The notes: generated from the sequence alone by a model not told the origin. A stretch of DNA of 64,000 nt from Deltaproteobacteria bacterium (GCA_015075075.1 JABTVA010000001.1:51662-115661); one strand, 5' to 3'; numbered from the stretch's first letter, positions 9,046-51,534 are shown. Numbers and translations: made by a program.

Positions 9046-9177
9046 GGAAACCTCTAAAAATTAGGGATTTTTCCGCTTTTCCGGAAGGCCGGGGATTAAA
9101 AGCGAGCATATATGACAAATGTGAGCTTTTGTTCCCGGCCTGACAAGAATCCGGAAAGATCGTTTTCGGAGGTTGCC
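9046..9177 (+). mobile_element. Family B MITE-like repeat, copy (termini GGAAACCTCTAAAAAT ... CGGAGGTTGCC, core AGCATATATGACAAATGTGAGC)
   Basis: Shares the core and termini with 12283, 22583, 30128, 32554 and 50635. Confidence 0.7.
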
Positions 9178-9178
9178 A

Positions 9179-9646
9179 TTACCTGTTTTTCTTTTTTCCC
9201 AGGAGGCCCGGTATCGTCCTCCTCAGGAGTATCCCGAGGAACTTATTGAGCGGGTTGGACCTGTCGAGGACCGGGATGACCGGCCTGTTCCTGAACCCGA
9301 GCTGTATGAGGAGCGAGTTCATCTCCTCGTTCGCCGCATCGTACCTCAAGCCTTTCTTGAATACCTTAATGGCCCCCTTCTTATTCCCGGCGGCCATGTA
9401 GACCTTGCCGAGGTTCAAATAAAACTCGGCCCTGAAGAACTCCTTCTTTACGGCCCTGGTGCAGAACTCGAGGCCCAGGCCTATCTCCCCGGCCCTCATG
9501 GCCCTGACCATGCCGTAGTACGACATGTACTCGGGGTTCTCCTTGTCCTCTTTCCAGGCCTTGTCGAACGACTTCAGGGCCCTGTCCAGGTTGTCTTCCT
9601 TCAGAAATCGTTTTCCAGCGATGAAGTGTTCCCGGCCTTCAGACAT
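9179..9646 (-). CDS. TPR-repeat protein
   Basis: Tetratricopeptide-like helical repeats. Start abuts the coaX stop. Confidence 0.6.
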   Translation of the reverse strand: MSEGREHFIAGKRFLKEDNLDRALKSFDKAWKEDKENPEYMSYYGMVRAMRAGEIGLGLEFCTRAVKKEFFRAEFYLNLGKVYMAAGNKKGAIKVFKKGLRYDAANEEMNSLLIQLGFRNRPVIPVLDRSNPLNKFLGILLRRTIPGLLGKKKNR

Positions 9647-10411
9647 CTAATCTATCTTCCCTCCGTGGATTATCCTTAAGCCCTTGAGGGTCAGGAATTC
9701 GTCTATCTCGGTTATGCGCCTCGACCTGCCCTTAAGGAGGCCCGCGTACCCGCCGGTCGCGACTACTATGGGGTTTGTCCCGGCTTCTTCGGCCATCCTC
9801 TCCAGTATGCCGTCCACAAGCCCCAGAAAGCCGTAGAATATCCCGGAGCGCATGGCCTCGACCGTGTTCCTGCCGATAACCCTCTCCGGCTTATCGGGCT
9901 CGACCCTGGGTAGCGCCGCGGTCTTCACATGGAGCGCCTCTGCCGATAAGCCTATGCCAGGGGCGATGGCCCCGCCGGCAAACTCGCCCTTCCCAGTAAC
10001 GTAATCGAACGTCGCCGCGGTCCCGAAGTCGGCCACTATGAGCGGCCTCTTATGCATGCTGAAAGCCGCGACCGCGTTTACGAGCCTGTCAGGGCCTACC
10101 TCCGAGGGTCTTTCGGTTAGGATATTAATCCCGCAGTTCTCGTGCGTGACGAACGTCGCGCTGAGATTCAGGTATCTCGCGAGCGCGTCCTTCATGGCCT
10201 CATTCAGCTGAGGCACGACCGAAGAGACTATGGCCGCCTTGAGGTCCCGGGCCTTTATGCCCGGGGATGAAAAGAGCGCAAGGAGCGCGGCCCCGTACTC
10301 GTCCGCCGTCCTCCGGGCGTCCGTCGAGAGACGCCGGCTCTCTTTAAGCTCTTCGCCCCTGAAAACACCCAGTGTTATGGAGGTGTTGCCTATGTCTACG
10401 GTCAGGAGCAC
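9647..10411 (-). CDS. coaX: Type III pantothenate kinase
   Basis: MLLTVDIGNT N-terminus, ASKHA fold, GGxA motifs. Confidence 0.85.
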   Translation of the reverse strand: MLLTVDIGNTSITLGVFRGEELKESRRLSTDARRTADEYGAALLALFSSPGIKARDLKAAIVSSVVPQLNEAMKDALARYLNLSATFVTHENCGINILTERPSEVGPDRLVNAVAAFSMHKRPLIVADFGTAATFDYVTGKGEFAGGAIAPGIGLSAEALHVKTAALPRVEPDKPERVIGRNTVEAMRSGIFYGFLGLVDGILERMAEEAGTNPIVVATGGYAGLLKGRSRRITEIDEFLTLKGLRIIHGGKID

Positions 10412-11395
10412 CTATTTGGACGCCGCCTCCATGTCGCCGGCCACTATCTTCTTTACGGCGCCGCCCGGTTCCCTTATAAGGAGCGCCCCGGTATCGTCAA
10501 CCCCCAGGCAGACGCCTTTTACGGTATTGCCGAACGAGACGACCCGTATCTCCTTGCCCTCAAAGCCGAAATACCTCTTCCATTCCGAAAGTATAGGCAC
10601 GGAACCCTCGGCTAAGTATACCTTATACCACAGCTCGACGCTCGATAAAAGACGGCCCGCGAGGGTTCTTCTGTCGACCTCGGCCCCCTTGGTCTCGCGG
10701 ACGGAAGTGGCCGTATTCCTTATGTATTCCGGGAACATGGGCCTGGTCATATTGACGTTAACGCCGATGCCCATGACCACGAAATGCACCCTCTCGGGCT
10801 CGGAGCCCATCTCAAGGAGTATGCCTGCCGCCTTCCTCCCGTTGATGAGTATGTCGTTCGGCCATTTCAAAACCGGCCTTGCCGGGCAAAATTCCGATAT
10901 CGCCTCTGCCGCTGCTACGGCCGCCACGAACGTGAGCCAGTGCGCCTCTTCCGGCGGTATGGGCGGCCTTAGGATTATCGAGAGATAGATATTGTGCCCT
11001 GCAGGAGACTCCCATCTTCTCCCGAGACGTCCCTTTCCATTGGTCTGGCCCTCGGCCATTATGACCGTGCCTTCTACCGCCCCGTTCCGGGCAAGCTCAA
11101 AGGCCTCGGCATTGGTGGAGCCGACTTCATTGTGGAAGCGAAGCTCCCTCCCGACAAAGCCTGTCTCAAGAAGGGACGAGACCTCAATGCCGTTAAACGG
11201 GAGTGGGCCCTTTAGCCTGTAGCCCTTTGAAGGGCTTGCCTCTATCGTGTACCCGGATTTCCTGAGGGCCTCGATGTGCTTCCAGACCGCGGTCCTGGTC
11301 ACCCCCAGCGCCCTGCTCAGCTTCTGCCCCGAGACATGGCCGGCCCCTGCCTTGAGGAGCCTTATTATCTCGGCTTCCTGCCCTTTGTCCCGCAT
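10412..11395 (-). CDS. birA: Bifunctional biotin-[acetyl-CoA-carboxylase] ligase / BirA repressor
   Basis: N-terminal HTH, GRGRxGRxW biotin-binding loop, C-terminal SH3-like domain. Confidence 0.9.
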   Translation of the reverse strand: MRDKGQEAEIIRLLKAGAGHVSGQKLSRALGVTRTAVWKHIEALRKSGYTIEASPSKGYRLKGPLPFNGIEVSSLLETGFVGRELRFHNEVGSTNAEAFELARNGAVEGTVIMAEGQTNGKGRLGRRWESPAGHNIYLSIILRPPIPPEEAHWLTFVAAVAAAEAISEFCPARPVLKWPNDILINGRKAAGILLEMGSEPERVHFVVMGIGVNVNMTRPMFPEYIRNTATSVRETKGAEVDRRTLAGRLLSSVELWYKVYLAEGSVPILSEWKRYFGFEGKEIRVVSFGNTVKGVCLGVDDTGALLIREPGGAVKKIVAGDMEAASK

Positions 11396-12357
11396 AGGGA
11401 TACCACTTCCATGCTGATGTCCACGGCCCGCGCCGAATGTGTAATGCTCCCGGCGGATATGAAATCCACTCCGGTTTTCGAGATGGGGCCTATGGTTTCA
11501 AGGCTCACGTTCCCCGATGCCTCCACGAGCGCCCTTTTCCCGATAATCTTCACGGCCTTCTTCATCTCGGCAATGGCCATGTTGTCGAGCATTATGATAT
11601 CCGCCCCCCGGGTTTCAAGCGCTTCCCTGGTCTCGCGGAGGTCCGTGACCTCCACTTCCACCCTTACCCTGCCCCTCTTCTTTTTACTTACGGCTTCGAT
11701 TGCCGAGGCGACCGAGCCCGCGGCCTTTATGTGGTTGTCCTTTATCAAGACCGCGTCGAAGAGGCCGAACCTGTGGTTCTCCCCGCCCCCGGCCTTTACG
11801 GCATACCTCTCAAGGGGCCTCATGCAAGGGGTCGTCTTCCGGGTGTCCAGGAGTTTTACGCCCGGGGACTTTATCCTCCGCGCGAACTCATTGGTCCTCG
11901 TAGCTATGCCCTAGAGGCGCTGGAGGAAGTTGAGGGCGACCCTTTCGCCCGTAAGTAGCGCGGAGAGCTTGCCCGAGACTGTAGCGATGGCCTGCCCTTT
12001 CCTCACCCGCTCGCCGTCCTTGAAGCTGGCCCTGAATACTGCCTTTTTGTCGAGCTTTTTAAAGACCATCTCCGGGATGAAGAGCCCGGCTATTACCATC
12101 TCTTCCTTTGCAATGAACTCCGCAGCCCCGGCCTGCCCTTTTTTGACTATCGCGTCGGTCGTAATGTCGCCAGGGCCCACGTCCTCCGCAAGGGCAGCGT
12201 CTATGAGAAGGGCCGCGTAGTGTTTGAGCGCCTTGTCTACACCAAGTCGGCCACGTTTTTTCCGGGCGATATTCTTTCTCAAGGCAACCTCTAAAAATTT
12301 GAGATTTTTCCCGCTTTTCCGGAAGGCCGGGAATAAAAAGCGGAGCATATATGACAA
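11365..12357 (-). pseudogene. nadC: Nicotinate-nucleotide pyrophosphorylase with an in-frame TAG at a conserved Ser codon (plus 11911-11913); 5' end fused into MITE B
   Basis: Two ORFs (11911..12357 and 11365..11823) are in the same frame. The read-through peptide ALNFLQRL*GIATRTNEFARRIKSPGVKLLDTRKTTP matches the NadC consensus (LQRLSGIAT). The N-terminal 40 codons are a translation of MITE B. Confidence 0.75.
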
Positions 12358-12423
12358 TATGTGAGCATTTTTATTAACGGCCTGACGCTGAGTCCGGGGA
12401 AAATATCAATTTTTAGCTTGCTG
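12283..12423 (+). mobile_element. Family B MITE copy, fused at its right end to family A copy A1
   Basis: GGCAACCTCTAAAAAT...core...TCAATTTTTAGCTTGCTGG. Overlaps the annotated nadC 5' end. Confidence 0.75.
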
Positions 12424-12578
12424 GAAAACTCCGTTTTTATTCAGGCTGCCTCAAAAGCTCCAGATGCGAGGCCCCCATTGGTATAAGGGAGCGAGGAATG
12501 AGGCGTACTTTTCGTGTACGCCGCAATGACGAGCGACGTAGCCTTCGACGCAGATGGACTTTTTCAGCAGCCTGTGTC
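12411..12578 (+). mobile_element. Family A MITE copy A1 (TIR CAGGCTGCTCAAAAAG.../...CTTTTTCAGCAGCCTG; internal hairpin GGCGTACTTTTCGTGTACGCC)
   Basis: One of 7 copies. 26-bp terminal inverted repeats. Confidence 0.8.
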
Positions 12579-12596
12579 AGAGGCTGCCTCAAGCCC

Positions 12597-19015: not shown

Positions 19016-19134
19016 CCTTTATTCCTTATCGGTTGGACGGGAGCGCTGATAATCGGGACTAAACCCTATTTTGAGGGATTTAAATCGATGATTCAGGACT
19101 AATGCGAAAGGTTGAGGCCTGACCGGCAAAAAGG

Positions 19135-19290
19135 TTTAGCAGGCTGCTCAAAAAGTCCATCTGCGTCGTTGTCTTCGTCGCTCGTCACTGCGGCGTACAC
19201 GAAAAGTACGCCTCATTCCTCGCTCCTCGACGCCTAGCATGGAGCCTTGAGCAGCCTGAATAAAAACGGAGTTTTTCGGCAAGCTGTTAG
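19135..19290 (-). mobile_element. Family A MITE copy A2 (reverse orientation)
   Basis: Reverse complement of the family A consensus. Confidence 0.8.
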
Positions 19291-19422: not shown

Positions 19423-20076
19423 TCAGTCGGGATGGACCATGCCTTTCCTGATTGCTATCTTTATAAGGCTCGCCATATCGCTCACCTTAAGTTTCTTCAT
19501 TATGTTGTTCCTGTGGCTTTTTACGGTAGCAAGCGATATGAAGAGCTTCTCGGCTATCTCCTTGCTGGTGGACCCGTCAGCGATGTGCTTGAGCACCTCT
19601 TTTTCCCTTCCGGAGAGGGTGTCGAATGGGTCGTGGCTCTGCTCCTTCTTTATGACCTCGACGAAGTCGTTCAGTATCTCCTCCGTGACGGCCGGGCTCG
19701 CGTACTTGCTCCCGGTCCTCACTTTCTCGACCGCCTTCAGTAGCTCCCCCGGCTCCGAGTCCTTGAGCACGTAGCCCAGCGCCCCTGCCCTGAAGGCCTC
19801 CAGGGGGCGCGACAGGTCCGCGTGCATGGAGAGGATGATTATCCTGGTCTCCGGAAATTCCTCCACCGCGCGCCTCGTCACCGCTATGCCGTCCAGGTCC
19901 GGCATGGTGATGTCGAGTATGGCTATGTCCGGCCTGAGCTCGGCTATGCCCTTCAGGGCCGCCATACCGTTGTCGGCCTCCCCCACCACCTCGTATTCAT
20001 TCGGGGGGAAGATCGCCTTTATGCCCCTACGCAGCACCGGGTGGTCGTCGGCTATGAATACCGTGGTCTTTTTCAT
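19423..20076 (-). CDS. NarL/FixJ-family response regulator (REC + LuxR HTH)
   Basis: VFIADDH, DIAILDITMP, C-terminal LSGREKEVL...GSTSKEIAEKLFIS..TVKSH. Confidence 0.8.
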   Translation of the reverse strand: MKKTTVFIADDHPVLRRGIKAIFPPNEYEVVGEADNGMAALKGIAELRPDIAILDITMPDLDGIAVTRRAVEEFPETRIIILSMHADLSRPLEAFRAGALGYVLKDSEPGELLKAVEKVRTGSKYASPAVTEEILNDFVEVIKKEQSHDPFDTLSGREKEVLKHIADGSTSKEIAEKLFISLATVKSHRNNIMKKLKVSDMASLIKIAIRKGMVHPD

Positions 20077-20223
20077 ACCTGCCTGAAGGGAAAAGGGCAT
20101 CGCCTCTTCGTTAACGAAACCGCTGGGACACGTTACAGCGGTCCAGGGGGGATAAATGGATTAAGGACGGTTTATTATATTAAAGGGCGGGGGTAAAAGC
20201 AAGGGATACTCTCGCGTACGCGC

Positions 20224-20384
20224 TATCAGCTTACTGAAAAACTCATTCAGGCTGCTCAAAAAGCTCCAGATGCGAGGCCCCCATTGAAATAGGGGAGCGA
20301 GGCATGAGGCGTACTTTCCGTGTACGCCGCAGTAACGAGCGACGTAGCCTTCGACGCAGATGGACTTTTTCAGCAGCCTGCTAG
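20224..20384 (+). mobile_element. Family A MITE copy A3
   Basis: Consensus match. Abuts the 3' end of the ftsH remnant. Confidence 0.8.
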
Positions 20385-22281: not shown

Positions 22282-22439
22282 ATTTAGAGTCTATAAGATA
22301 TTCCGATTAAATCAATCGGCGGGAAATAGATCAGCCTGATGAGACTGGAAGGATTGCAGGATTTTTGAGGAGGTTACGGGTGGACGCGGAGTGCCGGATT
22401 CAGACAACCTCTAAGAATTAGGGAAGGTCTGATTAATTC

Positions 22440-22555
22440 CGTTTCTTGCGGTCATTGCGAGGAGTGAAACGACGAAGCAATCTCAAAGTGCCTGATATTC
22501 AAAAGAAGAGATTGCTTCGCTGCGCTCGCAATGACGAATGCACGAATTAATCAAG
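22440..22555. repeat. Family D palindromic hairpin repeat (GTCATTGCGAGGAGTGAAACGACGAAGCAATCTC ... GAGATTGCTTCGCTGCGCTCGCAATGAC)
   Basis: Long inverted repeat seen in the sequence. Confidence 0.7.
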
Positions 22556-22582
22556 CTTCCTTAGCTATTTTTCCCGAGGTCT

Positions 22583-22680
22583 GCAGGGTGGAAGTAAAAA
22601 GCGAAGCATAGGAGCATATATGAAAATATGTGAGCATTTTTACGCAGAGTCCGGGGAAAAGATTCAATCTTTTAGCAGCT
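22583..22680 (+). mobile_element. Family B MITE copy (left end truncated), fused to family A copy A4
   Basis: Core AGCATATATGAAAATATGTGAGCATTTTTAC...GGGGAAAAGATTCAATCTTTTAGCAGC. Confidence 0.65.
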
Positions 22681-22840
22681 TGCTGAAAAACTCCGTTTTT
22701 ATTCAAACTGCTCAAAAAGCTCCATATGCGAGGCCCCCGTTGGAACAGGGGAACTGGGAATGAGGCGTACTTTTCTTGTACGCCGGAGTGTCAAGCGACG
22801 TAGCCTTCGACGGAGAACGACTTTTTCAGCAGCCTGTTAG
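22670..22840 (+). mobile_element. Family A MITE copy A4
   Basis: Consensus match. Ends at the stop of the downstream kinase gene. Confidence 0.8.
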
Positions 22841-22843
22841 AGG

Positions 22844-25321
22844 TTATGCCGCCGGAAGCCTTATGGAAACGGTGGTGCCTTTACCGGGCTCGGATTCGAA
22901 GTCCATGCTCCCTCCGTGCTCCCTTATTATCGAATAGGATATGGAAAGGCCGAGGCCCGTGCCTCCGGCATCCTCCCTCGTCGTAAAGAAGGGCTCGGTT
23001 ATCCTCTCCAGCACCTCCCTGGACATTCCCGCGCCCTCGTCGCGTACCTCGATGACCACCTCGCCATTTTCCTTGTCATGGAAAGTCCTTACACGGACGC
23101 CCCGAGCCCTCTCCGGGAGCGCGTGGAGGGCGTTGATGACAAGGTTTATGAGCACCTGCTCTATCTTCTGCGAGCTCCCCCGGACGGCAGGGAGGCCCTC
23201 GGCGGTCGAGACCTCGAATTTGTCCGTGTGCTTCATTATCTGGCTGCTCAAGATGGAGACGGCCGCCAGGACCGCCCTGTTCACGTCGAGTTCTCCGTCG
23301 AAGCAGGCCTTGTCCGGCCTCGAGAAGTCCTTCAAGCTATCCACTATCCCCTTTATCCTCCTCGACCCGTCGGTTATCCCTGAAAGGAGCTCGGGTATGA
23401 CCTCGGACATCTCCGAATAAGGGAGCCCCCCGAGGGAGAAGTCCCCGTGCTCCCGGTAATACCCGTCGAGTATCCTTACCGAGTCCTTCCACGCGTCCGC
23501 GAGCAGGGCCGAGTTGAAGAGTATGAAATTATTGGGGTTGTTTATCTCGTGGGCGACACCTGATGCGAGCGTCCCTATTGAGGTCATCTTGTTCGCGTGG
23601 ATGAGCTTGGCCTGCATAAGGCGGGCCTCCTCCTCCATCCTTATGAAGTCGGTCAGGTCCTGGACCGTGCAGAGGACCATCTTACCGTCCTTGAGCTTTA
23701 TGACCTGGCCCCTGGCCGAGAAGGTCACCCTGGTGCCGTCCTTCCTCTCGCCCTCTGCCCTGTCTATCGTGAAACCGGCGTCACGGGCCGAAAGGCTCTT
23801 TATCGCATCCGAGAGGCCGTGGTCCAGAAAGAACGGGGGCGGGTCTGATGAGGCGAGCTCCTCCCTCGAGTACCCGAATAGCGTTATGGCCGCCGGGTTC
23901 GCGTCGGTTATCCTGCAGCTACCGCCATCTATGAGTATCTGCGCGTTCTGGTTCTGCTCGAATATCTGCCTGAACCGCTCCTCGCTTTCCCTCAGGGCGT
24001 CCTCGGCGTTCTTCCGAGCGGTTATGTCCCTTTTTATCCCGAGGGCGAGATCCTTTTCGCCGACCTTGAAGGGCGTTATGGCCATGTCCACCCAGAGGAC
24101 CGAGCCGTCCTTCCTCCGTAGCGGCACCTCCTGCACGAAACCGCCCTTTTTCCAGAGGTCCCTGTGCAGCTTGAGCCTGTCGAACCTCCCGGGGATGGCG
24201 AGCAGGGCCACGTCGGACGAGAGTATCTCCTCGCGCGAATAGCCGACCATCAGGCAGCCCGAGAGGTTTACGTCGAGGTAGCGCCCTTCCATGTCGATGA
24301 CGAACATGCCGTCCATCGCCGATTCGAATATGGTCCTCAGGCGTTCCTCGCTCTCCCTGAGGGCATCTACCGCCTTCCTGCGCTCCGCGGCCTCCTCTAT
24401 GGATTGGAGCGCAAACCCCACGTCCGCCGCGAGGCTCAGAAGGAGGTCCACCATCTTTTCGAAAAAGACCGAGGGGTTTTCGGAGTAGACGGTAAGGGCC
24501 CCGAAGATAGTACCCCTTACCACGAGAGGGAAGGAAGCGCACGCCCTGTAGCCCCGGCTCGCGGCCTCGCCGGCCAGGGGCTTGAGGCCCCCGTCGCCTT
24601 CGATATCAAGGCATACGGAGTAAGAGCCGGAGTCGATGGCCCTGTCCACGGTGCCGGGCCCGGGCGGGATGCCGTCCTGCCTCCTCCGGGCTATCCGGAG
24701 GAAATCATTGTCGCAGCCTGCCGCGGCAAGCGGGACGATCTCGCCTGTCGCTACTCGCGATTTCCCTATCCACGCAGCCATGAACCCGGCCTTTTCAACG
24801 AGTATGCGGCAGGTCTCGGAAAGGACCATCCGCCCGGAGGACTCCCTTACGAGCATCTTGTCGACCTCGGTCAGGGTCTCAAGCAGCCGGTTAAGGGCCC
24901 GGAGCTCCTTTTCAGCCTTCCTGTGCGCCCTTTTCGTGGCATAGTCGCGAAGCTCGCGCTCTATTGCCGGGAGGAGCCTGAAGAGCCTGTCCTTCAGTAT
25001 ATAGTCGTCAGCCCCGGCCTTCATGGTGGTGACCGCCAGGTCCTCGCCCATGAGGCCCGATACGACTATGACCGGCACCTCGAGGCCGCGCTCCCTTACG
25101 GCCTTCACCACCTCGAGGCCGCAGAGCCTCGGCATTATGTAGTCGGATATGATAAGGTCCCAGGGGCCTTTTTCGAGCGCTTCCTGCAGGTCTCTTTCAT
25201 TGTCCACCCTGAGGAAGGACATATCATAGCCGCCGCGCCGGAGCTCGCGCATGAGGAATATGAGGTCGTCTTCCGAGTCCTCGGCGATAAGGACCTTGAG
25301 AGGGATGGTTTCAGGGTGCAT
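22844..25321 (-). CDS. Hybrid sensor histidine kinase: REC-GAF-PAS-PAS-HisKA-HATPase (cytoplasmic)
   Basis: N-terminal REC (DLIISDYIMP), H-box HEINNP, G1/G2 ATPase motifs. Confidence 0.85.
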   Translation of the reverse strand: MHPETIPLKVLIAEDSEDDLIFLMRELRRGGYDMSFLRVDNERDLQEALEKGPWDLIISDYIMPRLCGLEVVKAVRERGLEVPVIVVSGLMGEDLAVTTMKAGADDYILKDRLFRLLPAIERELRDYATKRAHRKAEKELRALNRLLETLTEVDKMLVRESSGRMVLSETCRILVEKAGFMAAWIGKSRVATGEIVPLAAAGCDNDFLRIARRRQDGIPPGPGTVDRAIDSGSYSVCLDIEGDGGLKPLAGEAASRGYRACASFPLVVRGTIFGALTVYSENPSVFFEKMVDLLLSLAADVGFALQSIEEAAERRKAVDALRESEERLRTIFESAMDGMFVIDMEGRYLDVNLSGCLMVGYSREEILSSDVALLAIPGRFDRLKLHRDLWKKGGFVQEVPLRRKDGSVLWVDMAITPFKVGEKDLALGIKRDITARKNAEDALRESEERFRQIFEQNQNAQILIDGGSCRITDANPAAITLFGYSREELASSDPPPFFLDHGLSDAIKSLSARDAGFTIDRAEGERKDGTRVTFSARGQVIKLKDGKMVLCTVQDLTDFIRMEEEARLMQAKLIHANKMTSIGTLASGVAHEINNPNNFILFNSALLADAWKDSVRILDGYYREHGDFSLGGLPYSEMSEVIPELLSGITDGSRRIKGIVDSLKDFSRPDKACFDGELDVNRAVLAAVSILSSQIMKHTDKFEVSTAEGLPAVRGSSQKIEQVLINLVINALHALPERARGVRVRTFHDKENGEVVIEVRDEGAGMSREVLERITEPFFTTREDAGGTGLGLSISYSIIREHGGSMDFESEPGKGTTVSIRLPAA

Positions 25322-29934: not shown

Positions 29935-30127
29935 ACCGCCTCCCTTTCATTTCATTTAAGGCTCGCGGCAAACCCACCCGATTGACCACACAAGCGAGCG
30001 CATTCCCCCGGGAGCTTTCTTCGTGGAACAAGCGAGCAAATATAAATCGAAAATCATGTGTCGAAGTTCCACGCGATGCCGCGGGGAACTTCAATGCCCT
30101 CTTTTTTTTTAAAGAGGCGGCCTAAAA

Positions 30128-30264
30128 GGGTGCTCTAAAAATTAGAAATTTTTTCTGAGGTCGAGGCAGAGGCGGAAATAAAAGCGGAGCATATATGTGA
30201 ATATGTGAGCATTTTATTCCGCCTCAACGAAGAGATCAGGAAAAGAGCAATTTTAGAGGCAGCC
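30128..30264 (+). mobile_element. Family B MITE copy
   Basis: GGTGCTCTAAAAAT...AGCATATATGTGAATATGTGAGC...ATTTTAGAGGCAGCC. Confidence 0.75.
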
Positions 30265-30268
30265 AAAA

Positions 30269-32196: not shown

Positions 32197-32553
32197 CCGG
32201 GAGCGCCGGGGTCCGTTATGAAACCTGCAAATCCTGAAGCGTGCTGTCTGGGAGGTCCGGCCTTCAGAGGTATCCTAAGGGAATCCTGAAAGGGCACTCA
32301 CATATGCGCTTGGCCGCTTATCTCAGTGAAGGGGATGTTTTGCAGAAAGCATGCCAAAAGACGGACGCCGGATTTTGCCAATGACATGAGGCGACGAAGA
32401 CTTCCAGCGTACGTGATGGGATGCGACGGTTGTTCAAAGGTTTTGTATCCGATAAAGCGGAATGGCCTGTCAAGGCAAGGGTTTCGTGCAGGTGCAAAAA
32501 AAATCGCAGGAGCAAAAATTGTCTCAGGGGTGCGTGCGGCTATTTCGCTATAG

Positions 32554-32694
32554 GGTGCCTCTAAAAATTCGGAATTTTTTCAGAGGTCAAGGAAGGGCGG
32601 AAATAAAAAGCGCAGCATATATGGGAATATGTGAGCATTTTTATTTCCGCCCTGACACAGAGATCAGGAAAAAATAACTATTTTAGAGGTGGCC
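32554..32694 (+). mobile_element. Family B MITE copy
   Basis: GGGTGCCTCTAAAAAT...core...ATTTTAGAGGTGGCC. Confidence 0.75.
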
Positions 32695-32796
32695 TATAAC
32701 GATTGGGAGGAATGAGATGGATTTACGTCATGCCGGAATGACATGGACTCGGGGATGGGCGGAATGCTTAAAAGATCCCCTGGACTGTCTGATTAA

Positions 32797-33165
32797 TTCG
32801 CAAACGCTGTCATTCTGAGCGAAGCGAAGAATCTCTGGGCCCAGCATAACTATTCAGATAGGTCATGCCACCCAGGATTCATGGATTCGATCAATTCGAT
32901 TTTTCTGGCTCTCATCCACCCTTTTATCTGCTTTTCACGTTCCAGCGCAGAAAGAATATTCTGTTGTCATTGCGAGGAGCCTTGGCTCCGAAGCAATCTC
33001 CAAGTGCTTGATTTTCCAAAAGACAAGATTGCTTCCCGCCACGCTTCGCTCGCGGCTTCGGCTCACACGCTCGCAATGACGAACACATTGAATTAATCAG
33101 AGCTTCCTTAACTCCTGAAAACAGATTCTTCGCTTCGCTCAGAATGACAAGATTTAATTCTTACC
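32797..33165. repeat. Nested family D hairpin elements: an outer element (32797-32835 and 33115-33165) interrupted by an inner complete element (32955-33095)
   Basis: Half-site GTCATTCTGAGCGAAGCGAAGAATCTC at 32803; its partner GATTCTTCGCTTCGCTCAGAATGAC at 33120. Complete GTCATTGCGAGG...CTCGCAATGAC between them. Confidence 0.6.
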
Positions 33166-33194: not shown

Positions 33195-34610
33195 CTAATG
33201 CTTGCGAGGGTCCTTTCTCTTGAGCCGCTTATTGAGCGCCTGGCGGGTAATCCCAAGGAGGTTCGCGGCTATGCCCTGGTTCCCGTGGGAAAGCTCAAGG
33301 GCCCTGGCTATGAGGACGTCTTCCGATTCCTTCAGGGTGGGGAAGTTCTCGGCGGATACGGGCGGCCCCGGCTTAAGCTCCTTTTGGGGGGCTGCCGCCG
33401 TCCTCTCCCGGCCTATTATGTCCCTGAAGTCTTTCCATTGAAAGCACGCCGCCCTTGTGCCTGGCGTAACCGCGTCGTAGACCATTGCCTTGGAGCCCCG
33501 GACGTTGCCCGGGAAATGATAGGTGGACATGAGGGTGGCGAGCTCGGGCGGCGGGTAGGCTTCTTCTTTTTCATGGCGTCCGCAGCCCTCTGCCAGGAAT
33601 GGTTATGAGCACCGGGATGTCCTCCTGGCGCTCGCGGAGCGGCGGATGTGGACCTGGTGGGCCGGAGCCTGTAGTAGGGTCCTTCCTGAAGCCGCCTTCG
33701 GCAATGAGCCTCAGGAAGTCGTGGTTCGTGGCGACGACTATCCGGACGTCGCCTTCTTGGGGACGTCCGATCCCAGCGGGTAGTATTTCTGTTCCTGCAG
33801 GAGCCGCAGGAGCTTCACCTGGGAGGACTCGTTCGTGTCCCCTATCTCGTCAAGGAAGAGGGTCCCGCCGGCGGCATGGGCTATGAGCCCCTCCCTCGCC
33901 TCGTCCGCCCCGGTATACGCGCCCTTCTTGTGGCCGAAGAGCGTGTCCGAGAACATGGTGTCGTCAAGCCCGGCCACGTTCACGGCAACGAACTCCCCTT
34001 TCCTGCCGCTTATGTCGTGGACCGCCCTTGCGAAGAGCTCCTTACCGACCCCGGTCTCGCCGGTTATGAGGACCGGCTGCTGTGTGGCGGCTATGACCTC
34101 GACGTACTGGAAGATGGCCCGCATCTTCTTGTTTACGGTGATTATGGAGGAGAAGGCTTCCTCGTTCTCGAGGTCGCCCATCAAGAGGCTCCGCTTGAGG
34201 GAAAGGACCTCAATCCGGAGCGAATGGAAATCGAGCGCCCTCCTTACGCTCGCCTCGAACCTGCTCCGCTCCACGGGCTTCACGAGGTAATCGAACGCCC
34301 CGGACTTCATGCATTCAACCGCGGTCTCGATGTCGTTTACGGCCGTGAGTATTATGACCGGGACCATCGGGTGGCTGTTTGCTATCTCATGGAGGAGCCG
34401 GGTCCCGGAGACGTGGGGCATGGAAAGGTCGAGGACGATGGCCGCGACCTCCTGCTTCTCGAGGAGCGGCATCACCTGCCTGCTGTCGTCGACCGTAAGG
34501 ACCTGCTTTATCCCGGCGCTACGGAGCAAGACGCTGTAGCTCTTAAGTATCTGGGCCTCGTCGTCGACAAGGAGGACCGGCAGGGGCATTTTACCGGTTT
34601 TTACCGACAT
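33195..34610 (-). pseudogene. Sigma-54-dependent (NtrC-family) response regulator, frameshifted between the AAA+ and HTH domains
   Basis: REC + AAA+ (GETGVGKE, GAYTGA) in 33738..34610. Fis-type HTH in 33195..33530. Frame is broken near 33540-33740. Confidence 0.7.
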
Positions 34611-34692: not shown

Positions 34693-36303
34693 TCAAGGGG
34701 AAAAGACCCTCCCCAGCCTGCATATTATGAACTGGTCGTCTATGGAGCTGAACGTGCGGCACTCCTCTTTAATGGCGTACATGTTGAATTTGCCCGCGGT
34801 ACTCTCTATCTGCAATATGTTCGGGAAAGGCACTATGATGTATGCCGGGCCGCTGTGGTTCCTCAAAACCTCCCTCATCTCCGCCTGGAATTTAGTATCT
34901 TTATACGGTGCGGTAAGATTGCTCTCGACCCTTACGAAACGGACGTCCTCGGGGAAAAAGGGTATTATATACGAATAGGGGCGTATCCCGGCCATGAGCA
35001 CCACCGAGTCCCGCTCGATTTCAGCCGGGGGCCGCTTAAGCCCGAAAAGCGTCTCCGACCAGTCCGTCCTCCCCCAGTCAGGGACCTTGACCGCGGAGAC
35101 AATGGCAATGAAGAGCGCGGCGACGGAGAGGCGAAACCAGGGCCTGCTTTTCACAAGGCAGCTTAAAAGCGCCGCTATCAATACCGGAGACAGCAGTTCC
35201 AGCGGCACAAGATATCTGTAGTACGGGAACCTTATCTGCCATACGACGTAAGAGCCGACAAAAAAGACCGTTAGGAATATATCCTTTCTCCTGCCATCCA
35301 GTCCAGCCAGTTTCTCATTTCTCTTTCTGAAAAAAATATAGACCGTCGCAAGGGCCGAGATGACGATTAATATGTAGGCCGCCGCAAAGCGGATGTCCCT
35401 GAAGTGCAGCTCCAACGCCAGGTTGTTCAGGCGCGCGAAATAGAAGGGATAGAAAAGTGTCTGGACGGCGTCGCGGGGGAAGAAACGCAAGTCGGCAATC
35501 TCGACGGGGTCGAAATACCCGGATTTGAAAAAGGAGTTGAAAAACGGGAAAAAGGGGCTGCCGAATTTTTCCCATAGCTTGAGCATCCAGAAACCCGAGG
35601 ACAACAGCATGCCTGAGAAAATACCGAAGCTCCAGCCGACTCCGTTCATAACCGCATCCTTTAGACCCCTCGACACGACAAGAACGGCCATGAGGGCGCC
35701 CGCCGCGTAGATTAATTGAGTGAGTTTAAGCCCGACTCCGGCCCCCATGACAAGGCCGCTAAAGAAGAGAGATAAAAGGAACGCCCTGCGGCCCGCTTTC
35801 TCAAGGGCCCCGAGCATCAGGAGAACCGACAACAGCACGAGGACGGAAACAAGGCTGTCGTTGAGGGTGGCGCCGAGCTCGGAAAGGAACCCGGCCCCGA
35901 ACGTGCCTGTTGCGGCCGTGAAAAACGAAAGGACTATCCTTTTAAGCCCTTCTTCAAAGGTGAATAGCTTAAGGCCTATGAGGTACAGAAGCCAGAAATT
36001 GACCCCGTGCAGGGCTCCCATCACAAAGCCCGCGTACACCGGCGGAAGGTACAGGAAAGAGATATAGAACGGCAGGTCCGTTAAAGGGTTCAGGTAGGTC
36101 TGGAACTGCGCCGGGCCGTAATCAAAACCGAGACGGCCGTTGAGGAAGGCGTACGGGTTGTAGAAATGGTAGTTCTTCAGGTCCCAGTCTATGACCGGGC
36201 CCAAGGCGACCGACAGGGACCCGAAGAAGATAACGCTTATGAAAAGCACCAGTAAACCCTGGGCCCTGAAAGGAGAAAAATTGTTTTTCCGTTCAGCACT
36301 CAT
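34693..36303 (-). CDS. Polytopic membrane protein, GT-C-fold glycosyltransferase-like (DUF2029 / mannosyltransferase-like)
   Basis: About 11 TM helices. Assignment by architecture only. Confidence 0.55.
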   Translation of the reverse strand: MSAERKNNFSPFRAQGLLVLFISVIFFGSLSVALGPVIDWDLKNYHFYNPYAFLNGRLGFDYGPAQFQTYLNPLTDLPFYISFLYLPPVYAGFVMGALHGVNFWLLYLIGLKLFTFEEGLKRIVLSFFTAATGTFGAGFLSELGATLNDSLVSVLVLLSVLLMLGALEKAGRRAFLLSLFFSGLVMGAGVGLKLTQLIYAAGALMAVLVVSRGLKDAVMNGVGWSFGIFSGMLLSSGFWMLKLWEKFGSPFFPFFNSFFKSGYFDPVEIADLRFFPRDAVQTLFYPFYFARLNNLALELHFRDIRFAAAYILIVISALATVYIFFRKRNEKLAGLDGRRKDIFLTVFFVGSYVVWQIRFPYYRYLVPLELLSPVLIAALLSCLVKSRPWFRLSVAALFIAIVSAVKVPDWGRTDWSETLFGLKRPPAEIERDSVVLMAGIRPYSYIIPFFPEDVRFVRVESNLTAPYKDTKFQAEMREVLRNHSGPAYIIVPFPNILQIESTAGKFNMYAIKEECRTFSSIDDQFIICRLGRVFSP

Positions 36304-37947
36304 CTGATGGGTCCAGACGCATTCCGTTCAGGAAGCCTTGCGAGCCTGCAGAGTATGAACCTGTCCTCGCCCTCCGCGGCCAAGCCCTTTGCCGATGAGA
36401 ACGAGCTGCAGTCATCTTTCCTCGCGTACATGCCGTATTCACCGGTTATTTTTTCTATCTGGAAGACATTTGCGAACGGGACCAGCAGATAGACCGGGCC
36501 TGCGTGCTCATTCAGCAACTCCCGGATTTCCTTCTGGTAAAGGGTGTTCTTATGGGGAGCGGTGAAGTTGCTTTCCACTCTTACGAAACGGATGTCTTCC
36601 GGAAAAAACGGGATCAAGTACGAGTACGGCCTCTGACCGGCCATGATCACCACCGAATTCTTCTCGATATACGCAGGAGGCGTCTCCAATCCGAAATAAG
36701 ACTCAGACCAGTTCGTCCGTCCCCAATCCGGGACCTTGACCATCGAGATGATGCCTATAAGGGCCGCTGCAACGGAGAGATAAAACCAGGGCCTGCTCCT
36801 CACAACGTAGCTCAAGAGCACTACTACCAAGGCCGGGGCAAGGAGCTCGAGCGGTATCAGATACCTGTAATACGGGAACCTTATCTGCCATATCACATAA
36901 GAGCCGACGAAGAAAACGGCCAGAAAGAGGTATTTCGAGCTGTCCCAGCCAGGCCGATTTTCACCGGCCTTTCTGAGATAGCGGTGTGCAAGCATCAAGG
37001 CCGAAAGGACAAGCAGGATATAGACTACCGCAAAGCGGACCTCCCTGAAGTACTGTTCAAGCACCAGATAAAAATTTAACCGGGCGAAATAGAAAGGGAA
37101 GAAAAGGGTCTGGATAACTCCCTCGGGAAAGAACCTGGTGTCAGCGATTTCGACTGGATCGAAATAAGGGGATTTGAAAAAAGCATTGAAGAACGGAAAG
37201 AACGGGCTCTCGAACCTCGTCCAGAGCATGTACATCCAGAAACCCGAGGAGGACAGAACACCGGCGGCGATTCCGAAGGCCCATGCGAACGCGCTCGCAA
37301 CGGATCTCTTCAATCCTCTTGAGACGGCAAGGACGGCCATGAAGGCGCCCGCGGCATAGATCAATTGCGTAAGTATCAGCCCGACCCCGGCCCCGAGGAC
37401 AAGGCCGCTCAGGAAAAAGGATATCAAGACCGTCTTGCGCCCCGTTTTCTCAAAAAGCCCCGAGCATCAAGAGGACCGACCACAATACGAATATCGCGAC
37501 GAGGCTGTCGATGAGGGTGGTGCCGAGTACGGACAGGAACCCGGCGCCGAAGGCGCCGGCAGCGGCAGAGGAGAATGAAAGGGCGCTTCTTTTGAGGCCA
37601 TCCTCAAAGGTAAATAGCTTAAGGCCGATGAGGTACAACAGCCAGAAATTAATTCCGTGCAGGGCGCCCAGCACAAAGCCCACGTAAACCGGCTTAAGGT
37701 ACAGAAAGGAAATATAGAACGGCAGGTCCGACAAGGGGTTCAGGTAGGTCTGGAACTGCGCCGGCCCGTAATCGAACCCGAGACGGCCGTTCAGGAAGGC
37801 GTACGGGTTGTAGAAATGGTAGTTCTTCAGGTCCCAGTCCACGACCTGGCCGAAAACGACGGATAGTGCCCCGAAAAAAAGCAGGCTTGAAAGAAGCACC
37901 AGCAGGCTCTGCGCTCCAGGGGTGCGAGAAGGTTTTTTTTGCCGCAT
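36300..37947 (-). pseudogene. Tandem paralog of the upstream GT-C-like membrane protein, split by a frameshift near 37430-37450
   Basis: 37450..37947 encodes the N-terminal third and 36300..37427 the rest. Both align colinearly with 34693..36303 (e.g. DWDLKNYHFYNPYAFLNGRLGFDYGPAQFQTYLNP identical). Confidence 0.6.
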
Positions 37948-41793: not shown

Positions 41794-41826
41794 AGTTGTA
41801 TACCAGGAAGAGTAAAGGCCAAAGAT

Positions 41827-41990
41827 AGCAGGGTATTGAAAAAACCCTGCCAAGCAATCCACGGATGGATTGCAAATTGCGAAGACTATCCCAAGTCGAG
41901 CAATTTGTAATGCCTGGACGGATTCATTCCGGCCAAGCCGTGGTTGGAAAAGCCCAAAAGGACTTTTTCAATAACCTGATAGGAGGGAGA
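41827..41990 (+). mobile_element. Family C MITE-like repeat, copy 2
   Basis: About 85% identical to 1369-1530. Confidence 0.7.
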
Positions 41991-42704: not shown

Positions 42705-42745
42705 GGCCGGGTCCGCCATGCGGAACGGCACAACCGGCGGACTTC

Positions 42746-42903
42746 TAACAGCTTGCCGTTTTTATTCAGGCTGCTCAAAAAGCTCCAGATGCGAGGCCCC
42801 GTTGGAACAGGGGAACTGGGAATGAGGCGTACTTTTCGTGTACGCCGGAGTGTCAAGCGACGTAGCCTTCGACGCAGATGGACTTTTTCAGCAGCCTGCT
42901 TAA
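42746..42903 (+). mobile_element. Family A MITE copy A5, inserted between dsrE2-like and tusA-like
   Basis: Consensus match. Confidence 0.8.
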
Positions 42904-42928
42904 GCCGTTCGGAAAAAGAGAGGGTATC

Positions 42929-43978: not shown

Positions 43979-44004
43979 AAGCTCACGGGGCTTAAGAGTC
44001 CTGC

Positions 44005-44192
44005 TTTAGCAGCTTGCTGAACGACGTAGGTGCCGAGGCCCCAGACCTCTGCCTTTTATTCAGGCTGCTCAAAAAGCTCCAGATGCGAGGCCCCCGTTGG
44101 AATAGGGGAACTGGGAATGAGGCGTACTTTTCTTGTACGCCGGAGTGTCCAGCGACGTAGCCTTCGATGCAGATGGACTTTTTCAGCAGCCT
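44005..44192 (+). mobile_element. Family A MITE copy A6, carrying a 32-bp insertion duplicated from 44299-44330
   Basis: CGACGTAGGTGCCGAGGCCCCAGACCTCTGCC inside the left arm is near-identical to CGACGTAGGTGCCGAGGTCCCAGACCTCTGCC within the adjacent ligD-PE gene. Confidence 0.8.
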
Positions 44193-44583
44193 GTACCTTG
44201 ATTACAAGCCAGTTCTTCTCCATAAAGCGGACCAGGGCATATCTCCCGGAAAGCTTCTTCCCGATGAACTCGACCGTTATCCTGTCTTTTTCCCAGGCCT
44301 CCACGACGTAGGTGCCGAGGTCCCAGACCTCTGCCTTGCCGGCGCCGTATCGCCCTTCGGGAATGGTGCCTTCGAAGCCGAAGTAGTCGAGCGGGTGGTC
44401 CTCTACCTCAACAGCCAGCCTTTTTACCCCTGGATTCTCGGGCATTCCCCTGGGGACGGCCCAGCTCTTAAATACCCCTCCCCTTTCGAGCCCCAGGTCG
44501 TAATGCGGGCGTTTTGCCTCGCGGCTGTGCACGGCGAACTTCCGGTTTTCCTTCAATCCGTCCTCCGGGTTGACAGCTCCCAT
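44056..44583 (-). CDS. Stand-alone LigD-type 3'-phosphoesterase domain protein; the C-terminal ~50 codons are read through MITE A6
   Basis: HYDLGLER...SWAVPRG motif. After ...RFMEKNWLVIK the reading frame is a translation of the repeat (RRWTLRRTRKV). Confidence 0.6.
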   Translation of the reverse strand: MGAVNPEDGLKENRKFAVHSREAKRPHYDLGLERGGVFKSWAVPRGMPENPGVKRLAVEVEDHPLDYFGFEGTIPEGRYGAGKAEVWDLGTYVVEAWEKDRITVEFIGKKLSGRYALVRFMEKNWLVIKVQAAEKVHLHRRLRRWTLRRTRKVRLIPSSPIPTGASHLELFEQPE

Positions 44584-44645
44584 TTACATGCTATTTTCAT
44601 TATAGCGGCCGCGCAGCGGTTACGCGGCCAGGAAGGATAACGCCC

Positions 44646-47785: not shown

Positions 47786-47925
47786 GAGGTCTTCTCCTCC
47801 GGGGCGGCCCCCTGGCTTAAGGGCCGCCGAACCTCCCTGGAGGTCGGGATGCGGGTTTCAGGTTGAAGGGAGAACTGAAATGCGAGGCGCGCAAGGTGAA
47901 TGGCGGGTTGGTTATCTAACAGCTT

Positions 47926-48086
47926 GCTGAAAAACTCCGTTTTTATTCAGGCTGCTCAAAAAGCTCCAGATGCGAGGCCCCCCGTTGGAATAGGGGGCGG
48001 AGGAACAGGCGTACTTTTCGTGTACGCCGCAGGATGACGAGCGGCGAAGACAACGACGCAGATGGACTTTTTCAGCAGCCTGCTAA
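47926..48086 (+). mobile_element. Family A MITE copy A7
   Basis: Consensus match. About 10 nt from the rpe remnant stop. Confidence 0.8.
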
Positions 48087-48095
48087 TCCGGACTT

Positions 48096-48810
48096 ATGCG
48101 GAAGCTATCTCTTTTTTCATCTGCGCTATCGTCTTCGCGTAATCGGTGGTGGAGAAGACTCCCGAGCCCGAGACGAAGACGTCGGCCCCGGCTGCTGCCA
48201 CGGTACGGATATTGCCGGCCTTTATGCCGCCGTCCACTTCGAGCTCTGTTCCTGCCCGTAGCCTCGATCATCCGGCGGACGGCGCTTACCTTTCCGAGTG
48301 TCGCGGGTATAAAGCCCTGGCCGCTGAAGCCCGGGTTCACGGACATGACGAGGACGAGGTCCACGTCCCCGATGATCGCTTCGAGGGACGACGCCGGGGT
48401 GCCGGGGTTTATAGAAACGCCCGCCCGGAGCCTGTGCCCCTTTATGGCCTGCACCGCCCTGTGGAGGTGGGTGGCGGCCTCCACGTGTACGGTTATTATG
48501 GCGCTTCCGGCCCTGGCGAAATCGTCTATGTACCTTTCCGGCTCCTCGCGAGGTGCACGTCAAGCGGTAGCCTGGTCCCCTCCCTTATGGCCTCGATGAC
48601 GAAAGGCCCTATGGTGATGTTCGGGACGAACCGTCCGTCCATCACGTCTACATGGACGTAATCGGCGCCTCCGTCCTCAAGGGCCTTAAGTTCAGAGCCG
48701 AGCCTGGTGAAGTCAGCCGAGAGTATCGAGGGGGAAATCTTCATGATCACTCCGAAACGGCGGGATTCCCTTCCGGGATGTTGCCCAGGCGCAAAAGCGC
48801 CTGCTCCGCC
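48096..48810 (-). pseudogene. rpe: Ribulose-phosphate 3-epimerase with two single-base frameshifts
   Basis: [12 protein letters not shown]...DVHL (frame a), ...VSINPGTPASS...LVMSVNPGFSGQGF...IEATGR (frame b), then ELEVDGGIKAGNIRTVAAAGADVFVSGS to the stop (frame c). This last frame was translated by hand. Confidence 0.75.
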
Positions 48811-48851
48811 AATTTCATACCAGAACCGGGCGGCTTTGTCCACCTGTACTT

Positions 48852-50580
<1,729 letters not shown>

Positions 50581-50634
50581 CGGGGCACCTCTTTAGGAAG
50601 TGGTTTACGGCATGGCAGCCGGAACGTTATAAAG

Positions 50635-50776
50635 GCAACCTCTAAAAATCAAAGATTTTTAACGCTTTTCCCGGAAGGCAGGGAATAAAAAACGGAGCAT
50701 ATATGACGATATGTGAGCATTTTTATTCCCGTAACTACCCAGAGTCCGGGGAAAAGATCAATTTTTAGAGTTTGCC
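50635..50776 (+). mobile_element. Family B MITE copy
   Basis: GGCAACCTCTAAAAAT...AGCATATATGACGATATGTGAGC...ATTTTTAGAGTTTGCC, followed by ATTGATTTTAA. Confidence 0.8.
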
Positions 50777-50836
50777 TGAATTGATTTTAACAGCGATAGC
50801 CAAAGGGCGCAACCGCCGGGGCGCAAGGAGTAGAAA

Positions 50837-51397
50837 TTATGCCTTCAGGTATTCCCTTAGGTACTCGGAGAGGGTCTTCTGGGTAACCATGCCGTTAAAG
50901 ACCTGGAGGACCGTGCCGTCCTTCCCGATGACGTAGGTCATGGGTATGAAGCCTATCTTGTAATCGGACATTATCCGCCTGTCGGAATCGATGCCAGCCG
51001 GGAAGGTGACGTTGTACCTCTTTATGAACTCGCGCGCGTTTGTCTCCGTGTCGTCGACCGCGACGGCCACGAACTCGACCCCGCTGCCCTTGAACTCCGC
51101 CCAGGTCCGCTCAAGCTCAGGGGCCTCCATCCTGCATGGCCCGCACCAGCTCGCGAAGAAATTGACGACCACGAGCTTGCCCTTGAGCTCCTCGATCCCG
51201 ATCTCCCTGCCGTCGAACCCCATTATCTTGAAAGGGACCGCCCTCTGGGGGGCAGTTTCGCTGGCGGCATTGGATTTCTCTTCCGCTTTCTTCCTGTCCT
51301 CGACTTTGCCGCAGCCCCAGAGGCCGATCCCCGCCAGGACGAACAGGATTACCGCTATATTGAGCGTATGGCCGCGCTGGCCCGCCTTGGTTCCCAT
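50837..51397 (-). CDS. TlpA/ResA-family periplasmic thiol-disulfide oxidoreductase (lipoprotein)
   Basis: Signal peptide with lipobox, WCGPC active site. Confidence 0.8.
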   Translation of the reverse strand: MGTKAGQRGHTLNIAVILFVLAGIGLWGCGKVEDRKKAEEKSNAASETAPQRAVPFKIMGFDGREIGIEELKGKLVVVNFFASWCGPCRMEAPELERTWAEFKGSGVEFVAVAVDDTETNAREFIKRYNVTFPAGIDSDRRIMSDYKIGFIPMTYVIGKDGTVLQVFNGMVTQKTLSEYLREYLKA

Positions 51398-51516
51398 CTA
51401 AGAGCACCTTCCAGTTTTTTGTGATTTTAACCTTATTGAAGGCGCTTTGCAACTGAAAGCAAAAAAGGCAGGCCTTTCGGCCTGCCTCCGGGATACCCAA
51501 ACGGATTGATTTTAAA

Positions 51517-51534
51517 GGCAACCTCTAAAAATTT
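51517..51534 (+). mobile_element. Solo left terminus of family B (GGCAACCTCTAAAAATTT), preceded by ATTGATTTTAA, abutting the trxA stop
   Basis: 18-nt identity with the B-family left terminus. Confidence 0.5.

Follow-up and report, generated by a model that had tools for sequence, protein, structure and literature searches.

Family B, a short palindromic repeat of uncultured Deltaproteobacteria: very probably a transposable element with a conserved central hairpin

Introduction

The 64,000-nucleotide (nt) stretch of a Deltaproteobacteria bacterium genome analysed here (GCA_015075075.1 JABTVA010000001.1:51662-115661; "the window", with positions counted from its first letter) carries several copies of a short repeat, designated family B, and thereby raises the question whether this repeat is a mobile element or a conserved structured RNA. 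An initial annotation had taken it for the second MITE (miniature inverted-repeat transposable element) of the window, ~140 bp in length with terminal inverted repeats (TIRs) and present in six copies plus a solo end. This description is borne out by a profile census, by 4-bp duplications and by insertion differences between relatives. Family B is very probably a non-autonomous DNA transposon, i.e. a MITE, of ~142 bp that inserts with a 4-bp duplication of a TTAA-like target. We found no paper containing the family-B core or terminus, and as a MITE family it is undescribed before.

Family B in the window and in related genomes

With an nhmmer profile made from 70 full family-B copies taken from relatives, exactly six copies were found in the 64-kb window, every one of them on the + strand (B1 to B6, by position). 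Their size ranges from 132 to 143 bp and is typically ~142 bp. The termini read GG(C/G)NNCCTCTAAAAAT at the left and ATTTTTAGAGGNN(G/C)CC at the right (terminal motif GGNNNCCTCTAAAAAT), and the 16-nt terminus GGCAACCTCTAAAAAT has six matches with at most two mismatches in the window, where 0.01 would be expected. The ends are of two kinds, one with GGCAACC (B1, B2, B6, solo end) and one with GGGTGC(C) (B4, B5), and the genome of the window has two subfamilies (B1/B2/B6, 85-91% identical; B4/B5, 79%). The longest reading frame of the consensus, read from the sequence, spans ~22 codons, and there is no transposase gene. The near-invariant core of 46 nt proposed initially is exact in B2 only and has two mismatches in B6; a constant part does exist, but is narrower (AGCATATATG-NNN-ATATGTGAGCA), its 32-nt version being 88-97% identical in five window copies.

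Relatives were sampled with one genome per species and scanned with a 24-nt core. This gave at least 110 family-B loci (individual loci are cited below as L plus number) in at least 21 species-level assemblies. The carriers are mostly groundwater metagenome-assembled genomes (MAGs) named "Deltaproteobacteria bacterium"; the element is also present in Desulfosarcina variabilis, a Desulfosarcina MAG and a Desulfatibacillum MAG. Copies per MAG number at least 12-13 among the loci listed, and within one MAG they are 80-98% identical (median 90%). There was no family-B match in a plasmid collection or in viral contigs.

Target duplication and insertion turnover

When the boundaries are set at the GG...CC ends, 29 of the 70 full copies from relatives are abutted by identical 4-nt flanks, whereas permuting the partners (2000 trials) gave 3.7 on average and never more than 11; in a further 13 of the 70, the 4-nt flanks differ by one mismatch. 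The signal is specific to this boundary and to 4 nt, its only rivals being its own 2- and 3-nt sub-strings. Although the target consensus is T-T-A-A, many duplications are non-palindromic (among them TCAT, TACA, ACAA, CTCA and ATAA) and therefore represent direct repeats rather than extensions of the inverted repeats. Duplications in the window are TCAA (B2, with a nested element removed), AAAA (B4) and TATA (B5). Flank profiles of the insertion sites show the 4-nt TTAA-like signal alone and no extended motif. Family B thus enters A/T-rich tetranucleotides through a staggered cut of 4 bp; in a genome of 58% G+C, these are found mostly just 3' of stop codons.

Insertions also differ between relatives. 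At L057, which has ~72% nucleotide identity to the window, the order of the ribonucleotide reductase (RNR), tlpA and trx genes is kept without B6 and without the solo end, and an intergenic region of L057 has a family-B copy that the orthologous window site does not have. In L019 and L055 (84-87% identical), family B lies ~9 bp apart and in opposite orientation, and L020 has family B at a site where L041 has an element of a different MITE family, family A (see below). Older insertions are common to several species (L003/L059, L025/L068 and L066/L099).

A hairpin maintained by compensatory change

Nearly the whole of family B is an imperfect palindrome, in which two arms of ~60 nt pair around an asymmetric 35-nt centre (AAAGCG-S-AGCATATATG-NNA-ATATGTGAGCATTT). 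The consensus folds as a single long hairpin of -72 kcal/mol (z = -12). The apical hairpin formed by the centre consists of an A/U stem of 7 bp, includes an internal loop that is asymmetric and rich in purines, and is closed by a G-N-N-A loop, whose last base is A in 115 of 116 copies and whose middle two positions are free.

In Desulfosarcina, Desulfatibacillum and two metagenome contigs the arm sequence is wholly different, with length, spacing and centre kept; the unpaired CAAGG and AACG motifs are likewise kept across both clades. In an alignment of 26 sequences, 94.4% of the positions were paired over 36 inner pairs, and 19 of these 36 pairs had changed on both sides (100 cells). None of 500 shuffles equalled the observed compensatory change, and slid controls were 35-60% paired. 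Stem covariation across species had been named at the outset as the observation that would speak for a structured RNA gene rather than a mobile repeat. It is present, yet the case for mobility stands, the two not being alternatives.

When folded as RNA, the + strand is more stable than the - strand in all 70 copies (mean -59 versus -46 kcal/mol, a difference of ~13.5) and in five of six copies of the second clade, an excess that comes from shared G.U pairs together with internal loops of the purine-purine type. Calculated with DNA parameters, the strands differ little and inconsistently. Rare or private mismatches (12 G.U versus 8 A.C) show no significant strand bias, as expected of resident copies that decay neutrally.

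Gene context and orientation

The copies in the window lie next to minus-strand housekeeping genes, namely fusA, a TPR gene, coaX, birA, nadC, valS, tlpA, trx and the genes for a histidine kinase, a sigma factor, a PilZ response regulator and RNR, and all six are antisense to genes. Relative to the flanking genes, family B overall is arranged in antisense tandem in 38 cases, in sense tandem in 26, convergently in 23 and divergently in 14. The stop codon of an inward-directed open reading frame (ORF) abuts the right end in 17 cases versus 4 at the left end when up to 3 bp are allowed, and in 21 versus 7 with up to 10 bp, counts that are inflated by orthologous copies; four of the six window copies have their right end at a stop codon. 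The left flank is more A/T-rich than the right. This bias of stop codons towards the right end reflects either an asymmetry of the target or selection.

A simple consensus scan detected no sigma-70-like promoter in B4, B5 or B6. Over the 64 kb, there were no Rfam matches at the gathering score, B5 giving chance-level ones only when an E-value threshold was used, and a search of the window for tRNAs and tmRNAs found none. The consensus WATCARNNNNTTR for integration host factor (IHF) has no match at a conserved position, the best one (7/9) being at a non-conserved position. An RNA gene would be expected at a conserved place in the genome and with a promoter and a terminator of its own; the positions of family B differ between relatives, and the simple scan of B4, B5 and B6 showed no such promoter.

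Proposed mechanism and alternative explanations

We propose that family B is moved in trans by a DDE-type transposase which would be encoded elsewhere, and that the self-complementary arms and the invariant centre would be cis requirements for propagation. The fold, or the extrusion of a cruciform, would bring the two ends of the 142-bp element together, and the centre would bind the transposase or a host factor. Resident copies would decay neutrally, while lineages that propagate would have to retain fold and centre; such a requirement in cis would explain why compensatory retention is seen across clades despite the neutral decay of individual copies.

Several points weigh against this reading. 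No base-precise empty site was found, and the orthologous comparisons come from genomes that are ~72-87% identical. Of six copies from the Desulfosarcina/Desulfatibacillum clade, only the one in L115 shows, on inspection by eye, a clean duplication (CTAA). It has to be considered, too, that copies from different MAGs are not phylogenetically independent samples. An autonomous element with family-B termini was looked for in the window and in ~0.93 Mb of loci, but every TIR pair at a spacing of 600-3000 bp consisted of two MITEs and no such element was found. Finally, a DDE enzyme normally requires just the terminal 20-30 bp, which leaves the pairing of the full arms, the invariant centre and the fold bias towards the + strand unexplained.

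It is these latter features that favour the alternative surviving best, according to which the MITE doubles as a functional, dispersed + strand RNA module (possibly a riboregulator, an insulator or mRNA-end element, or a hairpin bound by protein), with fold and centre retained through selection on the RNA rather than on transposition. Strong compensatory change in two clades, the invariant apical hairpin with its G-N-N-A loop, the purine-purine internal loops and fixed G.U pairs of the + strand, the stability excess of ~13.5 kcal/mol in 70/70 and 5/6 copies that becomes much smaller with DNA parameters, and the stop codons abutting the right end (17 versus 4) would all fit this idea. We nonetheless consider it unlikely: family B matches no Rfam family, B4, B5 and B6 show no sigma-70-like promoter, orientation is mixed, and the window copies are antisense, so that read-through would yield the less stable strand. 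Moreover, private mutations lack a G.U bias, copies are freely interrupted, truncated and deleted, and the strand asymmetry derives from two or three independent lineages only. Read-through from neighbouring genes would produce a long RNA hairpin that may affect mRNA ends, as with the Correia and ERIC elements discussed below. No result here shows a host function for family B, and a role of its RNA at the host level is a live but weaker alternative.

A further idea, distinctly doubtful, is that the centre and the strand-biased, compensated arms are recognised as a folded single strand. This would imply either an enzyme that uses hairpins or cruciforms and makes 4-bp duplications, or a MITE serving as the vehicle of a small structured RNA used by the host lineage at gene ends. 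To our knowledge, a hairpin or cruciform substrate combined with a 4-bp duplication has not been described for bacterial transposons.

We think it very improbable that family B is a REPIN/REP-like or palindrome-associated element that a Y1 HUH transposase (RAYT, IS200/IS605 type) would move in the form of single-stranded DNA. Family B is reminiscent of such elements in its long hairpin, whose loop is conserved and whose stems covary, in its strand-dependent fold and in its intergenic sites near gene ends. However, the flanks of family B are duplicated and variable among copies, whereas the Y1 HUH systems known to us make no target duplication and insert beside a fixed tetra- or pentanucleotide, and a unit of 142 bp with true TIRs is unlike REP units of 20-40 nt. 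Even less can be said for a non-mobile conserved structured RNA gene or cis-regulatory motif: the stem covariation across species would agree with it, but the 4-bp target duplications of variable sequence, the differing position and orientation at orthologous loci, the unrelated housekeeping genes as neighbours and the absence of an Rfam match make it extremely improbable. That the core codes for a small peptide (ATG-NNA-ATA-TGT-GAG-CAT-TT... = M-x-I-C-E-H-F..., in some copies preceded by GGAG at a distance of 5 nt) may safely be dismissed. Both clades do have an ATG frame on the + strand that, read from the sequences, stays open for ~17-27 codons; yet the first two positions of the second codon are free and the third is fixed (A, 115/116), the opposite of coding, GGAG is replaced by GCAG in about half of the copies, downstream changes track base pairing and not codons, and length and stop position vary.

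Individual copies, nested insertions and decay

The very probable transposon nature of family B given, the individual copies document how it inserts, is invaded and decays. The number of six copies plus a solo end given initially was correct; as to their limits, B2 and B3 are complete but interrupted, and B4 begins at 30128.

B1 (9046-9177, E=8e-19) separates the TPR gene, whose stop is at 9179, from fusA, which starts at 9010; the flanks of B1, TATT and ATTA, have ATT alone in common. The main part of B2 (12283-12416, E=1.8e-35) comprises the left TIR, the core and the right arm up to ATTTTTAG, and the last 8 nt of its right TIR, AGGCTGCC, follow at 12581-12588, as read from the junctions. 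The TCAA duplication of B2 is found at 12279-12282 on the left and at 12589-12592 on the right, with the valS stop at 12597. B3 is in three pieces: the left terminus GACAACCTCTAAGAATTAG (22403-22421, terminus match), a body that runs from the remainder of the left arm through the core (22611-22642) to CTTTTAG in the right arm (22561-22675, E=3.6e-20), and the last 10 nt of the right TIR, AGGTTATGCC (22841-22850), which overlap the stop region of the histidine-kinase gene (22844). Its outer flanks do not match. B4, a copy of the GGGTGC variant (30128-30264, E=6.7e-34), has AAAA duplicated at 30124-30127 and 30265-30268, and its right end is 4 nt from the stop of the sigma-70 gene (30269). The best window copy is B5 (32553-32694, E=3.9e-42) with TATA duplicated at 32549-32552 and 32695-32698. 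B6 (50634-50776, E=1.1e-29) lies between the RNR gene and tlpA and has the flanks TAAA and TGAA (one mismatch). The solo left terminus (51517-51534, + strand) matches the left end of B2 in 18 of 18 positions and is 7 nt from the trx stop.

TTAG motifs in the arms of family B are landing sites of other MITEs. A family-A MITE of 164 bp (12417-12580, + strand; TIR CAGSYTGCTGAAAAASTCC) sits in the TTAG of the B2 right TIR, flanked by TTAG and TCAG, as seen from a repeat search and the junctions. The left arm of B3 contains a palindromic MITE of 139 bp (GGAAGGTCTGATTAATT...CATTGCGAGGAG..., 22422-22560) with TTAG duplicated at 22418-22421 and 22561-22564; this type occupies the identical site of a family-B copy in L100. 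A second family-A MITE (22676-22840, + strand) is nested in the right TIR of B3 with TTAG duplicated on both sides, so that family A has hit one and the same right-TIR TTAG in B2 and B3.

Family B decays through internal deletion, which gives rise to mini-palindromes and solo ends. L003 retains a 25-nt mini-palindrome only, where L042 has the full centre; we had considered L003 as an empty site relative to L042, but it represents an internal deletion that left the mini-palindrome. Flanked by TTAA, shortened forms (44 and 59 bp) were seen in L068 and L100; further solo ends were found as well. The solo end at 51517-51534 fits this pattern of centre loss and is the leftover of a family-B copy whose body was lost.

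Two further arrangements were noted in relatives. At eight loci from different MAGs (L007, L026, L027, L039, L062, L081, L084 and L104), a 90-nt element (TCCTGCCGGACGGGCAAAT...GGCTGGAGAATTGATTTACCCC...GCGCCGAGCAG) follows GCAG in the right arm of family B, and a free-standing copy is present in L081 as well; this is either a composite subfamily that has spread or a site-specific insertion. In the metagenome contigs L117, L119 and L125, family B forms a tandem dimer, in which the truncated right end of the first copy, ATTTTTAAAA, abuts the left terminus of the second (head to tail).

The tlpA and nadC genes

The 11-mer ATTGATTTTAA, said initially to border both B6 and the solo end as a duplicated target or scar, does occur in two exact copies, both on the + strand, where 0.02 would be expected. 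The first (50780-50790) begins at the last base of the right flank of B6, the second (51505-51515) ends 1 nt before the solo end, so the offsets from the termini are 3 nt and 1 nt. It is not the duplicated target, the true duplication being 4 bp, and at other insertion sites it is absent but for one 10/11 look-alike at a non-orthologous locus.

We also considered tlpA as cargo carried between B6 and the solo end and rejected this, as the tlpA-trx synteny exists in L057 without both. Judged from this gene order, tlpA is ancestral and was not brought by family B. A promoter-like site of tlpA itself follows the trx terminator, and neither lies within family B.

For nadC, it had been claimed that B1 supplies the start codon and ~40 codons. 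The start codon instead sits in B2 (12283), with ~22 codons from the element: the called start is an ATG in the B2 core on the minus strand (within 12283-12357), and the annotation of GCA_048500075.1 uses the same one (327 aa). Since an in-frame TTG at the B2 boundary, 5 nt after the GAGG of the terminus, would yield a NadC of normal length, the called start is probably an annotation artefact caused by the repeat. The nadC gene of the window is distributed over two ORFs for the N- and C-terminal domains because of an in-frame stop (11908-11912; T versus G at 11912) that is absent from GCA_048500075.1.

Comparison with near-identical assemblies

The window is 99.0-99.7% identical to the MAG assemblies GCA_023384475.1 and GCA_048500075.1. 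Over 7.7 kb compared with GCA_048500075.1, 26 of 32 differences fall within B1, whose core is intact in the public sequence; in B4, the window has four 1-nt homopolymer deletions relative to GCA_023384475.1. As the public assemblies, at 99.6-99.7% identity, carry clean copies, the degenerate core of B1 belongs to the window sequence only, and this core and the short homopolymers of B4 are traits of that sequence and not of family B. Both public assemblies, which are of the same species, share the copies of the window, and no strain-level insertion polymorphism was seen between them.

Differences from the public sequences cluster at 9074-9167 (B1), at 30216-30264 (B4) and in the genic regions 33430-33752 and 48248-50583. 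Numerous indels in these genic regions split the RNR gene, which is one gene of 576 aa in GCA_023384475.1. The clustered differences look like local assembly error rather than biology.

Other repeats in the window

Family A (~164 bp, TIR CAGSYTGCTGAAAAASTCC, TTAG duplication), presumably the first MITE of the initial annotation, has copies at 12417-12580, 19133-19290 (minus strand), 20221-20383, 22676-22840, 42739-42900, 44034-44194 and 47921-48081. A pair of its sequences (19137-19226 and 20294-20383) is inverted around an ORF at 19423-20100. As the family-A termini share GGCTGC...AAAAA with family B, the two may be moved by one transposase family.

The widespread motif CATTGCGAGGAG...GAAGCAATCTC marks a third element, likewise small and palindromic, which is present at 22422-22560 and in L100 (~850), L036 and L097. 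Related to it is a perfect 27-nt inverted repeat that brackets 288 bp beside B5 (32808-32834 and 33123-33149). At least four copies of a GC-rich hairpin (GGGTGCGCTSCGCGCACC...TGGTGCGCGGAGCGCACCC), separated by A/T-rich spacers, form a cluster at 61965-62834; this hairpin is REP-like and has no relation to family B. Two distant sites, 1443-1502 and 41897-41956, share a 60-nt repeat with 90% identity; the latter is bracketed by a 23-nt inverted repeat (..GGGTATTGAAAAAACCCT..) at 41826-41848 and 41959-41981 and may be a further small mobile element. At 34693-37947, there are tandem paralogous genes with 300-nt blocks of 66-82% identity at an offset of 1650 bp.

Implications

With family B, an uncultured, little-studied branch of the Desulfobacterota gains a well-defined MITE family whose 4-bp target is TTAA-like. 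It explains several artefacts in MAGs, namely a nadC start called within a repeat, contig breaks at the repeat (short Logan contigs end beside B1) and assembly errors clustered inside copies. The nested copies show that MITEs insert into each other at specific TTAG sites. Family B furthermore offers a clean case of a MITE whose central hairpin is invariant across genera with arms rewritten by compensatory change, which makes testable what a MITE needs in cis beyond its ends.

Comparison with known elements

In integrons, promoterless cassettes are arrayed with attC palindromes between them that end in RYYYAAC / GTTRRRY. We rejected an attC site for family B, because its ends are GG...CC and not GTTRRRY and its neighbours are housekeeping genes (fusA, coaX, birA, nadC, valS, sigma factor, RNR, trx). 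REPINs, i.e. REP doublets mobilised by RAYTs, resemble family B as long intergenic hairpins that stay palindromic over evolution. We know of no REPINs with target duplication or with true terminal inverted repeats abutting duplicated flanks, in contrast to family B with its variable 4-bp duplications and its single 142-bp unit with TIRs.

The ERIC element of Enterobacteriaceae and Vibrionaceae is an imperfect palindrome of ~127 bp that is intergenic and conserved across genera, influences mRNA decay from its frequent position at gene 3' ends and has been classed as a MITE (PMC10969869). Both ERIC and family B are intergenic imperfect palindromes, but family B has clear 4-bp duplications and recent copies of up to 98% identity within a genome. 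No relation in sequence was recognised, a formal comparison not having been made.

A deltaproteobacterial MITE is Chunjie of Geobacter uraniireducens. It is A+T-rich with a very stable predicted RNA fold and many full or partial copies, measures 178-235 bp and has 21-bp TIRs and 9-bp direct repeats (PMC3184786, PMC10969869). Its length and repeat size differ, and Chunjie is therefore a family separate from family B, probably with a different transposase.

The Correia element of Neisseria (CREE/NEMIS) is a non-coding MITE of 104-157 bp with long TIRs and many intergenic copies near genes; it has a central IHF site, and its co-transcribed RNA hairpins are cleaved by RNase III (PMC10969869, PMC3184786). 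Correia and family B have in common that they are short, non-coding, intergenic MITEs with TIRs and an important centre. By its defining features, however, family B is no Correia element: the target duplication is TA in Correia and 4 bp (consensus TTAA) in family B, and family B is without a conserved IHF site, without a sigma-70-like promoter (B4-B6) and in another host phylum. Sequence similarity between the two was not recognised, again without a formal comparison.

Especially close in behaviour is bcr1 of the Bacillus cereus group, a repeat of ~155 bp with a transposon-like distribution, flanking direct repeats and compensatory changes that preserve its fold, for which transcription has been demonstrated (PMC3184786). 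Both are MITE-like with a compensated structure; bcr1 has 5-bp direct repeats and a cruciform of two independent stem-loops, whereas family B has a 4-bp duplication and one long hairpin. From Correia, ERIC and bcr1 alike, family B differs in host, in the length of its target duplication and, as far as recognised, in sequence. Family B is an ordinary kind of element and not a new kind of system, with a central hairpin that is unusually well conserved.

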